This document shows positions 3,810 through 34,576 of a stretch of 64,000 bases of DNA, piece by piece. The notes beneath the pieces are model-generated. The model saw only the letters and a program-made list of their open reading frames with translations, did no database searches and was not told the DNA's origin. Origin of the DNA: a virus; the IMG/VR virus record IMGVR_UViG_3300045988_168162, positions 1 through 64,000 of that record. One strand, 5' to 3'. Each line of letters begins with the position of its first letter. The stretch's first letter is position 1. Position numbers and translations under genes: made by a program.

Positions 3810-4426
3810 TCAATCACCTCGATATCGTTAAAGATTTCAGGATAGACGTCCTGCAGCTCGTGCAGGACGGGGATCATCAGTTCTCGGATAGCAGGGTGGG
3901 CATCCTTGGCGGTGCGCAGGCGCAGGACCTCATGCCACTCGCGCAGGTTCCAGGTACAGACGATCTCGGTTTTTAGGCACAAGGGCAGGACATCACGGGC
4001 TTGCTCCGGGGTGGCACCATTTTTCAGCATGTCCAAATAACACTGTTCCGCTTGCCAACAAGCATCTACCACATCTTTCATCACGATTCCTGTATAACCG
4101 TGGTTGATGATTGTAATTCCGTTATCGAATTTATCCTTGCTGTAATTGCAGTAGCGGGTGGACTCCTGCGCGTAGGAACCGATGCGATGACGGACGATCT
4201 CATTGGCGACACCGCGGTCTGTGATGAATTTGATAGACAGGCTGATATGTTCGATCATGGCATAGTGGTGGTTCTTACAGAGCATTGCGACCATTTTTGC
4301 ATCACTGCCCGGCTTGATGGCACCCTCGCTTTTATAACAGGTACGGGCGATCTGCTCGATACGCGGGAGCGTTACATCACGGTTGAGCGGTGTGATCCAC
4401 TCATGGGATTGCTGTACGATTTTCAA
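3806..4426 (-). CDS. thyX: flavin-dependent thymidylate synthase
   Basis: RHRIGSYAQESTRY matches the ThyX RHRxxSxxxxSxRY motif. TTG start overlapping the upstream stop. Confidence 0.9.
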   Translation of the reverse strand: MKIVQQSHEWITPLNRDVTLPRIEQIARTCYKSEGAIKPGSDAKMVAMLCKNHHYAMIEHISLSIKFITDRGVANEIVRHRIGSYAQESTRYCNYSKDKFDNGITIINHGYTGIVMKDVVDACWQAEQCYLDMLKNGATPEQARDVLPLCLKTEIVCTWNLREWHEVLRLRTAKDAHPAIRELMIPVLHELQDVYPEIFNDIEVIE

Positions 4427-4674
4427 TCTTCGATCTCCTCTTTTCTGGGTTTATAACAGGTACATGTCACTGGGTAGCTATACTGGTCGTATTCTAATGG
4501 GCAAGACTTAGTCGCTACGCGGAGGCCATTACCGTCAATGGCAATACAGTGTTCGCATGTAGTACACATGTCCGTTCCGGTTTTATCTCCCTTTTTATAG
4601 GTAAGCATCTCGAACAGGAGACGGCCTATAACAGCGCCAGAAAAGCATAGAGTCAAACTTAGAATCAGTTCCAT
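4423..4674 (-). CDS. small Cys-rich membrane-anchored protein
   Basis: N-terminal hydrophobic helix, then CTTCEHC .. C .. CTC cysteines. ATG 4674 lies 8 nt after AAGGAG. Confidence 0.45.
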   Translation of the reverse strand: MELILSLTLCFSGAVIGRLLFEMLTYKKGDKTGTDMCTTCEHCIAIDGNGLRVATKSCPLEYDQYSYPVTCTCYKPRKEEIED

Positions 4675-4676
4675 GC

Positions 4677-4877
4677 TCACTTCTCCTTGATATAGTTCTT
4701 ACATGGTTCCCGGCGGGCGAAAGCTTGGCGCTGGGCAGGGGATAGGTCATTATAATTAAAGGTGCGAACCGGCTTACAGTTGGCATCGTAGGCACGGCAC
4801 ATCACGTTGAGTTCTTCGCGTGACCGCTCCTTACGATTCAGTTCGCGGTGGTTTAGAAATGCCAAGTGAGGAATCAC
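4677..4877 (-). CDS. hypothetical protein (start uncertain, GTG 4877 or TTG 4865)
   Basis: ORF in the co-directional array. GGAGTGAT SD overlaps the upstream stop. Confidence 0.4.
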   Translation of the reverse strand: MIPHLAFLNHRELNRKERSREELNVMCRAYDANCKPVRTFNYNDLSPAQRQAFARREPCKNYIKEK

Positions 4878-5083
4878 TCCTTTATCTTTTGATAGACCGT
4901 ATAGGCGTGGTTTTTTAAATCGATAGGTAGAAAAATAAGGCGGCCAGCCAGAAGAACGAAGTATCCGATTTGCAGACTGGTGCAGACCTCGTAATCATGA
5001 CCGCACAGGAGGGCGATACCGGTATCGGGGTAGTTCTCGTTCATATGTACCATATCAATGGGCTTAGGTTTTCTTGGAAACAT
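4874..5083 (-). CDS. hypothetical protein (start uncertain)
   Basis: ORF from the track, trimmed to the internal ATG (MFPRKPKP) to limit overlap with the upstream gene. Confidence 0.3.
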   Translation of the reverse strand: MFPRKPKPIDMVHMNENYPDTGIALLCGHDYEVCTSLQIGYFVLLAGRLIFLPIDLKNHAYTVYQKIKE

Positions 5084-5288
5084 CCGGGGCGAAAACCTCC
5101 TTATCAAAATTTGGGTCTTTACTGGTCTTGGTCTTTTTCCAGGCTGTGCCATCCGGCATGAATAACGAAAATGAACCCGGCGGGTTGGTTTCTGTTACGA
5201 TAGCCAAGATCTCCTTGGTGCCGTTTGGCTTAGTATGGAAATATTGCAGGCAGACCCGCTGGCCTTTGGGCGGCTTAAACTCTTTCAT
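5064..5288 (-). CDS. hypothetical protein (74 aa)
   Basis: Start at MKEFKPP (ATG 5288) with GGAGAT SD, 2 nt after the upstream stop. The longer track ORF overlaps the upstream gene. Confidence 0.45.
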   Translation of the reverse strand: MKEFKPPKGQRVCLQYFHTKPNGTKEILAIVTETNPPGSFSLFMPDGTAWKKTKTSKDPNFDKEVFAPDVSKKT

Positions 5289-5290
5289 GG

Positions 5291-5803
5291 TCAGATCTCC
5301 TTGAGAGCCTCGATCATCTCGCGGTAGAGAACATCGTAGATGAGCCTGGCCGTGGTATCTGGATGACACATGAGGATTTGACTGTCATAGCGGGCCATCC
5401 AGGTGGTCATGCTGGCCGTCAGAGCGTTGGGTTTCATTTGACTGCGGTACTGGCCGGTGTAAGCTTTTTCCCAAGTAGCTTGTTCTACCAGCAGATAGAG
5501 TTTGGCATCTGCGGCCTGGGCACGCTCGAACTCACGCTTGAAGCGGTCGCGGCTGGTGGATAGATTGCCAGCCAATTCGGTCAAATTCTGTTTACGCTCA
5601 ATACAGGCTTTATCGGCCAGACTAAACGTGACACCGCTTGGTAGCTCGCACTGGGCGGAATAATCACCAAAATCCAGTTTCGTCTTAATAACCGGGCAGC
5701 CAAACTTACAGATACGAGCACGGTATTTCTCGGTATCATGCTCACGGCTGTCTACCAGGATGGTGAAGCTTTTGAGACAGTCTTTTACGGATTGTGAATC
5801 GAT
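5291..5803 (-). CDS. ERCC4/Mus81-Hef-type nuclease (170 aa), apparent ATC start
   Basis: ILVDSREH .. GDYS .. IERKQNLTELAGNL .. RFKRE is the ERCC4 nuclease core (DxRE, GDY, ERK). The frame is open up to 5803 with no ATG/GTG/TTG. AGGAGGTGATTTT precedes ATC at 5803. Confidence 0.6.
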   Translation of the reverse strand: MDSQSVKDCLKSFTILVDSREHDTEKYRARICKFGCPVIKTKLDFGDYSAQCELPSGVTFSLADKACIERKQNLTELAGNLSTSRDRFKREFERAQAADAKLYLLVEQATWEKAYTGQYRSQMKPNALTASMTTWMARYDSQILMCHPDTTARLIYDVLYREMIEALKEI

Positions 5804-30241: not shown

Positions 30242-30321
30242 ATCGTGGCTGCCGACCACTATGTACTACGCCATTTGCTGTCTGCCGAAGCGGACGGAGA
30301 AATATGGATGACGAATCATCC

Positions 30322-30396
30322 TGGTGCTGGATGCAGGCTACGATCCCGCCTTGCCGGAGTACAAAACCGGGGTTCTACCAAATGAACTAATCCAGC
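30322..30396 (-). tRNA. tRNA-Thr (UGU)
   Basis: Cloverleaf read by eye: acceptor GCTGGAT/ATCCAGC, D arm GTTC/GAAC, anticodon loop TTTGTAC, encoded CCA. T-loop is ATCGTAG (non-canonical). Confidence 0.7.
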
Positions 30397-30403
30397 ATAT
30401 AAA

Positions 30404-30423
30404 CCTCAGATTTGCCGCTGAGG
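30404..30423 (-). terminator. intrinsic terminator after ORF 30438-31019
   Basis: CCTCAG-N8-CTGAGG hairpin followed in minus sense by TTTAT. Confidence 0.5.
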
Positions 30424-30437
30424 AGCCGGTATGTAAA

Positions 30438-31019
30438 TTAAGAGCGTTTATCGAGAACTTTCTCGTCCATGTAAGCATCGATCATTCGTTGCGTTTCTTC
30501 ATACGTGTGCTCACGGGCGTAACGGTTTACGTAGTTGATGCCGACACCCATGATCCTGGCAGCCTCGCGCCCAGTGACAGGAATCCTGTAATAATGTGTG
30601 GTGGATTTATGCTTTGAGTTGAGCCGCGTTGGAATCCAACGGCAATTCTCTGGGCAGTAATCCTTAGAAGAATCAATACGGTCAATGGACAGACCGGGTT
30701 TATACCCGTTTTGTAAAGACCAGAAAATAAATTCATCCGGGTGATAGAGCCATTCATCACAAATTCGGATGCCTTTTGCGCCATAGAATTTATAATCAGA
30801 TGCAGAAGTATCGTAACATCGGTCTTTCATTTTTAAGAAAGTTTTGGTAAGATGAGAATTTGAGACAGATGCTTTGGCAGCATGAATCGTAGGAAATCCA
30901 AAACGATCATAATGCGGGCATGTGTCATTTTTTAAATAATGAAAGTCACCAATAGACCGAATTGTTTTTGTGCCGCAGTAGACGCACTCGCCAACATAAA
31001 GTGTCCGATTGTTTTGCAC
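30438..31019 (-). CDS. homing-endonuclease-like protein (HNH/AP2-related family)
   Basis: MKDRCYD..YKFYGAKGIRICDEW .. F..W .. GYKPGLSIDRIDSSKDYCPENCRWIP, a pattern common in free-standing phage endonucleases. C-terminal HTH-like GREAARIMGVGINYV. Confidence 0.6.
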   Translation of the reverse strand: MQNNRTLYVGECVYCGTKTIRSIGDFHYLKNDTCPHYDRFGFPTIHAAKASVSNSHLTKTFLKMKDRCYDTSASDYKFYGAKGIRICDEWLYHPDEFIFWSLQNGYKPGLSIDRIDSSKDYCPENCRWIPTRLNSKHKSTTHYYRIPVTGREAARIMGVGINYVNRYAREHTYEETQRMIDAYMDEKVLDKRS

Positions 31020-31119
31020 AGATTTATCTATGATTTTGTAAGGACCACAGCGCTCGCCAATATGATTTGTTTTTATTGGAAATCACCTCTTTGAAAAGAA
31101 GACCGAATAGCATTTTAAG

Positions 31120-31193
31120 TGTTCCCGGTGGAAGTCGAATCCACAAATAACAGAACCTAAATCTGCCGCGTCTGCCAATTGAGCCACGGGAAC
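31120..31193 (-). tRNA. tRNA-like gene, anticodon UAG (Leu) but short variable arm and weak D stem
   Basis: Acceptor GTTCCCG/CGGGAAC, anticodon arm GCAGA-TTTAGGT-TCTGT, good T arm GTGGA-TTCGACT-TCCAC, A73. The D stem has only 2 clean pairs. Confidence 0.4.
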
Positions 31194-31469
31194 ATGGCAG
31201 GCTTCCCGCATAGATTATCGAATCACTATCGTCACCGTCATGACCTTCACCATACCATCTTTGCACCGACAACTAGCATTGGCACTAAGCATGTAGGAAG
31301 TGATTTGTTTTCAGCGGACATTGTCATTCTGGGTGAGGCTATCCCATGCGCTCTCACATCGTTCGGGCGCTACCCGACCTCTGGATAAACCAGGCTGGCT
31401 CGAACAGTCACAAACGGGGTCAAAGCCCGTTGCTCTTACCATTAGGGGCGAAAGCTCATTATAAATTGA

Positions 31470-33008
31470 TTATACGAATAAAATACCCGTATTTTTTGCA
31501 ACAAACCTGCACTTTCCTGCTGCAATTTTATTTGTATTTGTATCATAGTACGTTGTTGCTTTTCCATTTCGAGAAGATACAATCCCTTGCATTATATGAA
31601 TTTGCTTTTTGACAAGAAAAATACTTCCTGGATAATTACGGTTCGGATTCCTGTATGTTTGATGATGTTTTTCAACTTTTAGTTTGCAAACAGTATTTTG
31701 ATTTTTTTTACGAAATTCTTCCAAACTATCTACAACCTGTTCAACAGCCTTATGCCGATTAAATGCTACTTTTTTACCATTGAACGTATATATGCGACTC
31801 ATGTTTGCATTATTTAACGCCCTCCTATCGTGACGACGGAACTGTTTAAGTTCATACGGTGCACGACTGTTGATTGTACTATCACAAACATCGTTAGGCA
31901 AAACAGAACAGGCAATGCAATAGGCATCGAGCCAGTGGTCTTTGCTTATACCGTGTGCTGCACGGTAATCGTAGGTGCTTTTTCCCGTTGTTACGAAAAA
32001 GTGCTTTTGAAAAAGAGAACTTAATTCTTTCGTCAGTGCCGGAATGATTTGATTCAATACACTCAAAGCACCATATTTTTTATTGAGTCCTGTTTTCTTT
32101 TTGGCGAGTTTTTCTTGCCATGCAGTATCCTTATGTACGAGGTTATGATGCTTTGCGCATAAGCCAACGATATTGGCAATTGTGTTGCTGCCATTTTTAT
32201 GTTGCGGTACTACATGATGGTAATGTTCAATAGGTTTCTTACAAAACAAGCAGTGCTGTTCCTGCATTTCAGAAACAGCGCTCTCAAGATCCCCTTTTTG
32301 ATAGAGTGGACCCTGTTGGTACTGCCACTTCTTGATAACGGGATTATCAAGCTGCATGAAAGCAAATTTGTTAACCTCAAGCACAACATCACTGATGGGA
32401 AGGAATTTTTGAATTTTCTTAACCAAGTTGATGTGTGTTTTGAGCAACTGATTTGCAGTAGGCGTAAGCCAGCCTTCCGGTCTTGTGCGATTGTTGAACT
32501 TTGCTTCTTTGTTCTTGATGCCAATGCAAAGGACTTCTTTCTCGCAACCCGGAAGATGGCGCTTAATGACGCCAATTTCTTTTGCACGCTTGCTGACGCT
32601 GCCATTTTGGGCAGTGTCTTGCTTCACGCACTTTTTAGAAATAGTGCCATTGGCTTTTGCTCTCCGCTGACGACGGCATCGTCTACCATTGGTACGTCTT
32701 GCACGGCGGGAATCCTTACGCTTTTTCATCAATTTCGGAATTTCCTTGTTACGGGTTTCCAGATGTGCGGTAAAGACTGCCGTGCCGTCCGTTTTAACAA
32801 CAGCAACACCGATATTGGTTCTGCCGGGGTCGATGCCCAAGTAAAGCGGTTGCACCACATCGTCAGTTTCATACAACAGTTGAATGGTAAACGGCTTTGT
32901 TCTTACGGCTCGTGCTTTCTGCTCTTTAAGAAGATGGCGTACATGCCCACAGCGAGTCGTAGGCATTAAAGGTTTACCGTCTTTATTAAGCACATATACA
33001 GTGGACAT
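31470..33008 (-). CDS. iscB: IscB RNA-guided nuclease (512 aa)
   Basis: PLMP motif (DGKPLMPT), RuvC-I LGIDPGRTNIG, Arg-rich bridge helix RRARRTNGRRCRRQRR, HNH (CLFCKK..HHVVP..N..LCAKHHNLVH), RuvC-III DHWLDAYC. ATG 33008 follows AAAGGAGG. Confidence 0.85.
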   Translation of the reverse strand: MSTVYVLNKDGKPLMPTTRCGHVRHLLKEQKARAVRTKPFTIQLLYETDDVVQPLYLGIDPGRTNIGVAVVKTDGTAVFTAHLETRNKEIPKLMKKRKDSRRARRTNGRRCRRQRRAKANGTISKKCVKQDTAQNGSVSKRAKEIGVIKRHLPGCEKEVLCIGIKNKEAKFNNRTRPEGWLTPTANQLLKTHINLVKKIQKFLPISDVVLEVNKFAFMQLDNPVIKKWQYQQGPLYQKGDLESAVSEMQEQHCLFCKKPIEHYHHVVPQHKNGSNTIANIVGLCAKHHNLVHKDTAWQEKLAKKKTGLNKKYGALSVLNQIIPALTKELSSLFQKHFFVTTGKSTYDYRAAHGISKDHWLDAYCIACSVLPNDVCDSTINSRAPYELKQFRRHDRRALNNANMSRIYTFNGKKVAFNRHKAVEQVVDSLEEFRKKNQNTVCKLKVEKHHQTYRNPNRNYPGSIFLVKKQIHIMQGIVSSRNGKATTYYDTNTNKIAAGKCRFVAKNTGILFV

Positions 33009-33240
33009 ATACGCCACCTCCTTTACGATAAGTCTCCCCTGCCGAAGCGGGAGGTTATGTTTCCCTTGGCTAGGTAGCAGCTTAGTAGTGTTGCAAGCTG
33101 GGAAAACCTGCAAGTACATCTGCTATCTTGATGTACAAAAGTACATCTGCCTGTGATATTGAAGGAACTTAGTGGAATGATATTATTTTATTAAAGTTCT
33201 TCAATACCCTACGACGATGTGCCGTTTCGGAAACCCGGAT
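33009..33240 (-). ncRNA. candidate IscB omega-RNA (HEARO-like) scaffold
   Basis: 232-nt non-coding leader immediately 5' of iscB with several hairpins (GATGTAC-TTTT-GTACATC; TAGCAG..CTGCTA; CTCCCGC-TTCG-GCAGGGGAG). The position matches known IscB omega-RNAs. Boundaries unknown. Confidence 0.45.
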
Positions 33241-33317
33241 GGAACTGGAGGGCCTCGAACCCAAAATCATAATCCCAGTTATGAGCTGGACGCACTAACC
33301 ATTTGTGCTACAGTTCC
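33240..33317 (-). tRNA. tRNA-Met/Ile2-type (CAU)
   Basis: Acceptor GGAACTG/CAGTTCC, D arm GCAC/GTGC, anticodon loop CTCATAA. The T stem is weak (3 clean pairs) and the variable region is 9 nt. Confidence 0.55.
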
Positions 33318-33409
33318 TTATAAAATGGTTCCGTTTTTATCCTTAACGGTTTCCGTAACAGATAAGTAAGAATGAAACAAATATAGAAGGAGGGGGATAC
33401 CAGCCCCCA

Positions 33410-33485
33410 TGGTCGAATAGGCGAAACTCGAATTCGCGGCCTCTTGCTCCCAGGGCAAGCGTTCTACCAGCTGAACTACTACTCG
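33410..33485 (-). tRNA. tRNA-Pro (UGG)
   Basis: All four stems are clean (CGAGTAG/CTATTCG, GTTC/GAAC, CTTGC/GCAAG, GCGAA/TTCGC), encoded CCA. The anticodon loop CCTGGGA has C at position 33. Confidence 0.8.
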
Positions 33486-34030
33486 ATAATAAGAGAGAAC
33501 CTACCCCTGGATGACTCGAACGTCCGTTTTCAGCCTGCGCTGCTGTCCTTGCCTATTAGACGAAGCGGCAAGCTCTCTCTGAATTGGATTGAAAGTGTTT
33601 TCTTCTTGGCTCCCATTTCTATAGCCAGGATTCCGATAGTGGCGAACTATCCTAGGTGTTGGTTTATCTGCTAATGTTTACAGACTCTATAGCAGACCAC
33701 ATGCGAGTGGTGAAACCTTTGGCACCTGCCGGTTATCTGCAGGCACACGCTTTCAATCTTGGCGGGGCACTATCCCCAGCCTGTTGGTGGGACCTGGACC
33801 TTGCGGCCAGCCCCCGAGTTGTGCGAGACCTAGATCTGAGCGAGGCGAATCCTGCCTTTGCCGTTTGGCATCTCGCGGTAACGGAACCTGAATTCATGCG
33901 GATTTCACTGGGCGATATCTAATAAATAGACACCGAAACCGTTCATCATCCGAAGCAGCTGGATTCCGTTTTGCCCTGATTCCGGCTTTCGGCAGGTGAT
34001 CGGCCTGCTATAGAACCAGGGCAATGGTGC
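33486..34030 (-). ncRNA. long structured non-coding region between tRNA-Pro and RNA module B
   Basis: No credible ORF. Many local and long-range helices, e.g. 33971-33978/34017-34024 (8 bp), a GNRA-capped hairpin at 33794-33810, and a tRNA T-arm-like GGACG-TTCGAGT-CATCC at 33509-33525. Confidence 0.4.
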
Positions 34031-34319
34031 GGAATGAATCTTGACCAGACAGCCCGCGATTGGTATGTATAATGCAATGGGTGTGGCGCATGGTCTGGGT
34101 GACAAATTTGAACACTCGGATATGACCTGAGTGTGGCGCGTGTTGCAAGGGAATTCTCGTGCCTGGAGGCAGCTGCACATTTCGATTATACTGACAAAGT
34201 AGTGGCATAATCCACTGGACAACCTGGGCCGTGACTGTCATTAACCCTTGGCAGAAACCAGGTATTACTTTCGCGAGAATCCTGTGGCGCTGCTGTGCGC
34301 TGTTGGTAAGATTCATTCC
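34031..34319 (-). ncRNA. copy B of the conserved structured-RNA module, closed by a 12-bp helix
   Basis: GGAATGAATCTT (34031-34042) pairs with AAGATTCATTCC (34308-34319). The conserved module GGGTGACAAATTTGAACACTCGGATATGACCTGAGTG lies at 34097-34133. Abuts tRNA-Gly. Confidence 0.5.
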
Positions 34320-34321
34320 GT

Positions 34322-34396
34322 TGGAGCGGCTGAGGGGCGTCGAACCCCCGTCCCCAGCTTGGAAGGCTGGTATACTGGCCGTTGTACGACAGCCGC
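34322..34396 (-). tRNA. tRNA-Gly (UCC)
   Basis: Acceptor GCGGCTG/CAGCCGC, anticodon arm CCAGC-CTTCCAA-GCTGG, T arm GGGGG-TTCGACG-CCCCT, encoded CCA. Confidence 0.85.
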
Positions 34397-34576
34397 ATAA
34401 TAGGGCGGATTATTTTTACATGCTACCGCCTTCGCATGTTGCCCATATACCAGCCTTGAGGACAGCGAACTGTCGCACAGCCGGACATATGACCTTGTAC
34501 CAAGGATTTTTAAGAAACGTTGAGCGTGTGAACCGTAATCATTAAGCGTTGACGAAAAATAAACTTTGAATCTTGA

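Follow-up and report, generated by a model that had tools for sequence, protein, structure and literature searches.

The window analyzed here, that is, the whole stretch of 64,000 nucleotides, corresponds to positions 1-64,000 of an IMG/VR virus record (IMGVR_UViG_3300045988_168162) that is 146,780 bp long, carries direct terminal repeats, and is rated 100% complete; it belongs to a 147-kb phage genome from the human gut. Inside a tRNA island, it encodes an IscB protein together with its omega RNA. Comparison with related phages makes it very probable that this locus is a recently acquired OMEGA element of the OgeuIscB clade, apparently no longer able to transpose. A fuller reading, which we consider probable though by no means secure, is that this transposition-incapable element would act as an RNA-guided homing nuclease between phages.

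IscB is a small relative of Cas9, whose ancestor it is presumed to be, and efforts are under way to turn OgeuIscB into a compact tool for genome editing. To our knowledge, the natural biology of IscB has been described only via IS200/IS605 elements in bacteria. At the present locus, guide, target, and recipients are all provided by nature: the element is what distinguishes occupied from empty phage alleles, and the guide is identical to the empty site, so that homing of this RNA-guided kind would lend itself to a direct test.

The IscB protein and its omega-RNA scaffold

The features of the nuclease gene and of the RNA scaffold in front of it, all on the minus strand, are as follows.

31470..33008, minus strand: intact iscB coding sequence of 512 amino acids, stop codon TAA at 31470-31472
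33006..33209, minus strand: omega-RNA scaffold of 204 nt running into the start codon; homology starts exactly at 33209, beside unrelated flanks
33208-33155, minus strand: guide-adaptor hairpin, from the consensus fold
33100..33104, minus strand: 5' strand of the pseudoknot, UUCCC, in the loop UUUUCCCAG (33106-33098), pairing with GGGAA at 33065-33061
33061..33065, minus strand: 3' strand of the pseudoknot, GGGAA, inside the conserved AGCCAAGGGAAAC; counterpart of OgeuIscB C93-C96:G155-G158
about 33053-33034, minus strand: terminal UUCG hairpin, from the consensus fold
33021-33017, minus strand: Shine-Dalgarno sequence GGAGG, 3' of the terminal UUCG hairpin

The 512-amino-acid protein was IscB by every sequence test. 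Pfam returned RRXRR at 4.5e-49 and HNH at 21.5 bits against a cut-off of 21.4, and the NCBIfam equivalog NF040563 'guided_IscB' scored 227.7 bits against a cut-off of 175. In a phmmer search of the PDB, the protein matched OgeuIscB end to end, residues 1-509 aligning onto residues 1-491 with 574 bits and an E value of 3e-171 (7utn, 7xht; see also 8csz; PMC9640706). The alignment to OgeuIscB, whose named catalytic residues are E193 and H247 (PMC9640706), contained the PLMP motif, GIDPG with the RuvC-I Asp, VVLEVN with the RuvC-II Glu, DHWLDAY of RuvC-III, the Arg-rich helix, and the HNH motif HYHH..N..N..HH. An earlier reading of the letters alone (hereafter the sequence-only reading) had described an apparently intact IscB with all these hallmarks; the alignment bore this out, with the catalytic motifs unmutated. 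Some differences were nevertheless seen from OgeuIscB, namely a 19-amino-acid insertion in the REC-linker region, and Ser at both residues aligned to the TAM-reading E460/G461 (TAM, target-adjacent motif).

Translation starts at the ATG at 33008, behind AAAGGAGG. A longer frame, from the ATG at 33119, was ruled out because every relative begins at the ATG behind AAAGGAGG. The ratio of nonsynonymous to synonymous substitution rates (dN/dS) of iscB against its relatives was 0.06-0.09, and of 298 highly conserved columns, 7 carry a deviating residue in the window protein (family median 2, maximum 15). As far as sequence comparison can tell, both the protein and the RNA scaffold are shown to be intact and under constraint.

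Decayed copies exist in the family, for instance at L070 6001-6570, where iscB stops after 189 codons. We also noticed an antisense open reading frame (ORF) of 256 amino acids inside iscB (32199-32969, plus strand); it matched no family, stays open in relatives as well (L010 6040-6810), and probably exists only because the sense frame is constrained.

Upstream of iscB, the sequence-only reading had pointed to a hairpin-rich leader of 232 nt as a candidate omega RNA, and this proposal gained considerable support. The leader (231-232 nt) folded at -74.7 kcal/mol (z = -3.35), and none of 200 shuffles did as well, the test being taken over 250 nt upstream of iscB. IscB relatives at 70-88% identity are encoded in 151 IMG/VR stretches, and the 204-nt scaffold (33209-33006) was conserved in ~60 distinct loci, similarity setting in sharply at 33209 (GGGTATTGAAG...) with unrelated flanks beyond. 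The scaffold comprises, in order, a long guide-side hairpin, a 7-bp stem-loop, a hairpin with the loop UUUUCCCAG, a UUCG-capped hairpin, and the ribosome-binding site. RNAalifold gave a poor consensus on a mixed alignment of three subclasses; since the middle domains were not collinear in it, the subclasses were folded separately. In the consensus folds of two of them, several pairs were altered on both sides, that is, in a compensatory manner. The loop UUUUCCCAG pairs with AAGGGAAA downstream, and this pseudoknot covaried as well, UUUCCC/GGGAAA being replaced by UAACCC/GGGUUA in the diverged third subclass.

This organization closely resembles that of the published OgeuIscB scaffold, which has 206 nt, a guide-adaptor hairpin, a stem-loop 2, the pseudoknot C93-C96:G155-G158, and terminal hairpins (PMC9640706). 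The likeness, judged from the published description rather than from an alignment of the two RNAs, extends to the length of ~204-206 nt ending at the start codon, the guide-adaptor hairpin, the 7-bp stem-loop, the CCC:GGG pseudoknot, and the terminal hairpins. OgeuIscB itself came from a human-gut metagenome (Kato et al. 2022, PMC9640706).

The HEARO RNA (RF02033) is likewise the RNA partner of IscB-type HNH nucleases and occupies the same genomic position. A scan of 31000-34500 with its Rfam model, as the sequence-only reading had suggested for the leader, returned no match, either at the gathering score (83 bits) or at E<=10. That reading would have taken such silence, joined to the lack of a stable RNA, as a refutation, but the silence cannot be used in this way: the model also missed the homologous scaffolds of five complete related loci, in which it nevertheless found other HEARO RNAs. 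Since the model misses the whole clade, its silence is no evidence against an omega RNA.

Complete relatives with inverted-repeat ends

Complete relatives of the element are units of 1.79-1.81 kb with terminal inverted repeats of ~24 bp and 8-bp target-site duplications. They were found at the following positions, and at about 30 further loci.

L020, 5786-7592: complete unit
L029, 5784-7592: complete unit
L064, 1361-3168: complete unit
L081, 5786-7592: complete unit

Each unit extends ~45-52 nt beyond its stop codon, and the bases that close it are the opening ~24 nt in reverse complement (as in GGGTATTTGCAAAAATAGGTGGTT...AATCACCTAATTTTGCAAATACCC), the two repeats matching at 16-23 of 24 positions. 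A direct flank duplication of 7-8 out of 8 positions was present in 16 of the 32 distinct site configurations; in the remaining ones, its absence is accounted for by an exchange of flanks among copies or by small deletions at the junction. The 8-bp duplication was proven by pairs of occupied and empty alleles. Thus, the occupied L081 reads ...aataaataag|element|taaataagtaaagg as against ...aataaataagtaaagg in the empty L035, with 293 of 300 bases identical on each side, and L064 and L080 showed the same pattern, the empty site holding a single 8-mer. The nucleotide at position 3 after the duplicate was a purine in all 16 sites examined, and that at position 4 was a purine in 14 of them; therefore, a guide derived from the flank would face a TAM-like sequence in the empty site. 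The insertion sites of the family were varied and A/T-rich, and the elements carry iscB alone.

To judge from these ends, the architecture of the family is not that of IS200/IS605, and the family would move in a manner that the searched literature does not describe for IscB. The sequence-only reading, which implied an IS200/IS605 frame with TnpA acting in trans and ends in the form of LE/RE hairpins, has to be corrected on both counts, the complete members having terminal inverted repeats and 8-bp duplications and the window copy lacking a right end. Its observation that no TnpA lies nearby can be extended: Y1 TnpA (PF01797) was not found anywhere in the 146,780-bp phage, where IscB is single-copy. 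Likewise, in five phage genomes that contain between one and three copies (completeness by CheckV 94-100%), no match was obtained to rve, IS240, ISL3, Transposase_mut, IS1595, DDE_Tnp_1, or Y1 (PF01797), and no other unit had these ends. A degenerate pattern of the ends was also run against 401 genomes from the order that includes Faecalicatena absiana, and its matches were no better than noise, at a level similar to that of a reversed-pattern control. The ends may resemble those of the IS6/IS26 family.

Complete relatives of the element were found in phage records only. A scan by exact 8-residue words of one genome from each of 185,579 prokaryotic species detected no close full-length relative, and a large protein collection held 1,472 relatives at E<=1e-50, nearly all of them metagenomic and on contigs of up to about 300 kb. 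Two more distant OgeuIscB-like loci, L217 and L218, showed possible inverted repeats; as single copies, they cannot define ends.

The ISC elements of IS200/IS605 type that carry IscB (Kapitonov et al. 2016, PMC4810608) share with this family a single-gene non-autonomous unit, an omega RNA encoded upstream, a flank-derived guide, and the presumed cutting of the element-free site. However, they have no inverted repeats and no target duplication, insert at fixed 4-5-nt motifs, and rely on Y1 TnpA (PMC4810608), whereas in the family of the window the ends are inverted repeats and the insertion sites, varied and A/T-rich, are duplicated over 8 bp. A parallel for an OMEGA nuclease inside a transposon with inverted terminal repeats is TnpB in DDE-transposase elements (Altae-Tran et al. 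2023, PMC10691335); these have symmetrical ends and include 'solo' copies devoid of transposase (PMC10691335). Those elements encode TnpB, however, whereas ours encode IscB, for which no partner transposase turned up in the five phage genomes. In the searchable literature, there was no report of IscB in inverted-repeat, DDE-linked elements, TnpB alone being reported there.

Taken together, the inverted repeats, the 8-bp duplications, and the apparent restriction to phages suggest a second mobility route for IscB, one that would have its counterparts in the eukaryotic Fanzors and in those TnpBs, the rarer ones, that are DDE-linked. We put forward tentatively, as something a little less than an even bet, a general scheme for the IscB clade that includes OgeuIscB. 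Its members would be phage-borne 1.8-kb transposons with inverted-repeat ends and 8-bp duplications, mechanistically unrelated to IS200/IS605, and their guides, taken from the flank, would be directed against sites of sibling phages that lack the element. An enzyme other than the known transposases, conceivably IscB itself, would move them, and the window copy would represent the next step: after losing an end, it would survive in a tRNA island solely as the gene of an RNA-guided homing endonuclease. If this were true, the picture of the origin of the best-known IscB would change, and the question would be raised of which enzyme moves the elements.

Other elements and RNAs were noticed around some of the relatives. 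A group of phages with genomes of 140-147 kb carries an additional IscB element, of the classical kind, ~230 nt upstream of the inverted-repeat element (3970-5554 at L029). It consists of a HEARO RNA (3970-4216, 72 bits) and a 420-amino-acid IscB with RRXRR and HNH, and the two unrelated IscB systems are in tandem. At L010, a HEARO-like RNA with no IscB gene of its own (5542-5795; 41.6 bits, below gathering) adjoins the left end of the element and may be the remnant of an older one. Hepatitis delta virus (HDV)-like ribozyme matches to RF02682 were also present in IscB-bearing phage loci, at L002 849-919 (42.2 bits) and L071 734-801 (33.2 bits), the gathering score being 44.

The empty site, the guide, and the lost right end

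The flanks of the element in the window contain the following features.

33240..33317, minus strand: tRNA-Met (CAT), upstream neighbor of the element (ARAGORN; Rfam 47.9 bits)
33210..33225, minus strand: candidate 16-nt guide ACGGCACAUCGUCGUA, directly 5' of the scaffold, in flanking phage DNA (tRNA-Met trailer)
31459..31469, minus strand: right junction, 11 nt (TCAATTTATAA) between the stop codon and tRNA-Gln, defined against the complete elements and the empty site of L096
31382..31458, minus strand: tRNA-Gln (TTG) with a degraded 5' half (ARAGORN; Rfam tRNA 17.2 bits only)

The tRNA island described in the sequence-only reading is real, ARAGORN predicting six tRNA genes between 30.3 and 34.4 kb, all on the minus strand. 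The element lies between tRNA-Met and the weak tRNA-Gln, with iscB co-directional with the tRNAs.

Relatives of the phage were retrieved with the neighboring gene for a 684-amino-acid protein as query. The closest of them, L095 and L096, whose flanks are 96-97% identical, have no iscB and provide the empty-site homologue that the sequence-only reading had proposed to look for. Their similarity to the window reaches 33209 (L095) or 33437 (L096) and resumes from 30403. Both read ..ACGGCATACCGTCGTA|GCAGAC.., the window reading ..ACGGCACATCGTCGTA|GGGTATTG.., and the left junction is exact at 33209|33210. The exact empty target followed by GCAG occurred in six IMG/VR contigs.

The order in L096 is tRNA-Met ...CCGAAACGGCATACCGTCGTA|GCAGACAATCCC... 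...TTTTTATAG|tRNA-Gln, that is, an intact spacer of 118 nt, and the window order is ...CCGAAACGGCACATCGTCGTA|GGGTATTGAAG... iscB ...TAA TCAATTTATAA|tRNA-Gln. From the window copy, the 3' tail of ~40-52 nt that would contain the right inverted repeat is missing, as are ~95 nt of the spacer and any second copy of CCGTCGTA. The right breakpoint falls between 31469 and about 31441; this segment resembles both the 3' tail of a relative and the 5' half of tRNA-Gln. The right end and the duplicate were absent in all nine occupied copies examined, and the junction was common to all of them. A complete ancestor at this site, with right end and duplicate, was not recovered: IMG/VR contained no other occupied copy, and the lone metagenome match was an unrelated chance one. 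The tRNA-Gln has a weak acceptor stem and D-arm, its first ~18 nt being unlike the well-formed tRNA-Gln of L096, and this damage may have come from the insertion or from a later deletion.

The sequence-only reading had the guide abutting tRNA-Met. With the scaffold starting at 33209, the 16-nt guide is instead 33225-33210, 14 nt from the 3' end of the tRNA (33240). Among eight copies with an identical protein, the only variation between tRNA-Met and the stop codon concerned the guide, at 33219 and 33217. The natural guides of the occupied copies were ACGGCAUACCGUCGUA or ACGGCACAUCGUCGUA. Seven of nine occupied copies (six of the eight aligned, plus L220) read ACGGCATACCGTCGTA, identical to the empty site of the relatives. 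After the guide match, the empty site continues with GCAG, which fits the NNRR TAM of OgeuIscB; in the phage itself, the nucleotides after the guide-encoding sequence are GGGT, and these do not conform to NNRR.

No other guide match with <=2 mismatches was found in the phage genome, the nearest elsewhere having >=3. The 16-mer of the window had 13 exact matches in IMG/VR; none of the contigs concerned belonged to the set of related phages, and by a rough estimate the number does not exceed the chance expectation. Beyond the empty site, then, no target of the guide was found in IMG/VR above chance or in the phage genome; host genomes were not searched, since chance matches would swamp a 16-mer. 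The sequence-only reading had envisaged competing elements or host loci as targets. The first idea is plausible in the form of the uninterrupted site of sibling phages, and for the second no target was found in IMG/VR or in the phage genome.

Proposed homing between phages and its alternatives

The favored course of events would be as follows. An element of 1.74 kb, comprising IscB and its omega RNA, would have entered the spacer between tRNA-Met and tRNA-Gln. Because no good promoter of its own was found, the omega RNA would be read through from the tRNA array, tRNA-Met being the probable source. Where a sibling phage co-infects the cell, the RNA-loaded IscB would then cut the uninterrupted site in that phage, and repair templated by the genome that carries iscB would copy the element and neighboring DNA into the sibling. 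Such a process would amount to homing, or marker exclusion, of the kind known from free-standing homing endonucleases. A copy that has lost its right end could no longer transpose and would depend on this homing route. A precedent for a nuclease gene within a phage tRNA cluster is SegB of T4, a free-standing homing endonuclease reported to cut the tRNA region of a related phage and to be inherited preferentially with neighboring markers (cited in PMC13565253). Recognition by IscB would differ, however, in relying on a guide RNA and a TAM rather than on protein, and its behavior is deduced from sequence only.

The distribution of the truncated copy is consistent with such spread. Independent samples of the human gut yielded at least 20 contigs that encode the identical IscB protein. 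Seven aligned contigs showed no difference from the window over the 1,740-nt element, and their backgrounds diverged by 1.4-5.8% beyond about 33600 and below about 30250. A 98%-identical variant, L220, occupies the same site, with its differences clustered in 33130-32400. It carries nine amino-acid changes among ~55 nucleotide changes and two compensatory RNA changes relative to the window, and it shares the junction, which indicates that the truncated element has persisted under constraint.

Several observations nevertheless weigh against homing. The identical-element contigs were picked by exact protein identity, which biases toward zero nonsynonymous changes, though not toward zero synonymous ones, and ordinary phage recombination around a conserved tRNA block could also give an identical element in mosaic backgrounds. 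The window and L194 carry a guide variant with two mismatches, at TAM-proximal positions 8 and 10. OgeuIscB no longer cuts when mismatches fall within TAM-proximal positions 1-14 (PMC9640706), so the variant may be inert on known targets and probably does not cut the known empty sites. The sequence GCAGAC fits NNRR but not the stricter NWRRNA reported for OgeuIscB. The scaffold of the window has six broken pairs, four of which leave the distal guide-adaptor hairpin partly unpaired, unlike that of OgeuIscB; these four lie in the counterpart of OgeuIscB U15-U29, a stretch disordered in the solved complex (PMC9640706). Lastly, a promoter scan between tRNA-Met and the scaffold detected no good promoter.

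The most serious alternative, which we regard as unlikely but worth weighing, is that of a stranded selfish passenger: the element would have transposed in, lost its right end, and be now idle and decaying, its ORF being intact only through recency. The loss of the right inverted repeat and of the target duplication, the damage to the neighboring tRNA-Gln, and the fact that the nearest relatives manage without the element would all agree with this. So would the six pair-breaking scaffold changes, which are specific to the lineage of the window, and a window guide two mismatches away from all known empty sites. Yet, two diverged variants (98% amino-acid identity) keep the truncated junction and intact frames, with the few amino-acid changes and the compensatory RNA changes noted above. 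The element is moreover unchanged on the 20 or more contigs, in separate samples and diverged backgrounds, and a perfect guide match is kept in most copies.

Another possibility, which appears improbable, is a domesticated phage weapon, that is, an IscB kept against a host locus or an unrelated competing element, with its guide fixed for that role. The loss of a transposon end would fix the gene in place, the accessory-island location and the orientation shared with the tRNAs would suit such a function, and the window guide is unlike the empty site. However, presence/absence polymorphism among phages that are 96-97% identical speaks against a fixed function, and the majority guide is simply the ancestral flank. 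The 13 exact 16-mer matches in IMG/VR remain about chance, and the phage's own genome has no second site. These data also bear on the choice, left by the sequence-only reading, between a non-autonomous OMEGA element and a domesticated nuclease. An intact IscB that has a genuine omega RNA but no transposase of its own was borne out; lasting domestication is improbable, given that iscB is absent from the nearest relatives.

An ordinary non-autonomous IS200/IS605 (ISC) element mobilized in trans by a host Y1 TnpA, which the textbook IscB context and the lack of a transposase in cis might suggest, is scarcely credible given complete relatives with ~24-bp inverted repeats and 8-bp duplications of variable sequence proven by occupied/empty pairs, neither of which Y1 elements have, and given the absence of Y1_Tnp from the five complete element-bearing phage genomes.

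The tRNA island itself is strongly mosaic (window 30300-34400 against L095-L106). In close relatives, tRNA-Ser/Leu(taa)/Leu(caa) are exchanged for tRNA-Gln/Leu(tag), and differing tRNA-Met bodies precede one conserved 35-nt trailer, the putative IscB target. Between tRNA-Pro and tRNA-Gly, Rfam matched a DUF3800-XI RNA (33765-33814, minus strand; 44.3 bits against a gathering score of 37.8). The island also contains an ORF of 193 amino acids (30438-31019, minus strand; about 7740-8330 in L096) with no Pfam match at E<=0.01, whose place within the island differs among close relatives. Its C-terminal stretch ...CPENCRWIP..N..H is presumably an HNH-type signature, and the ORF may encode a free-standing homing endonuclease.

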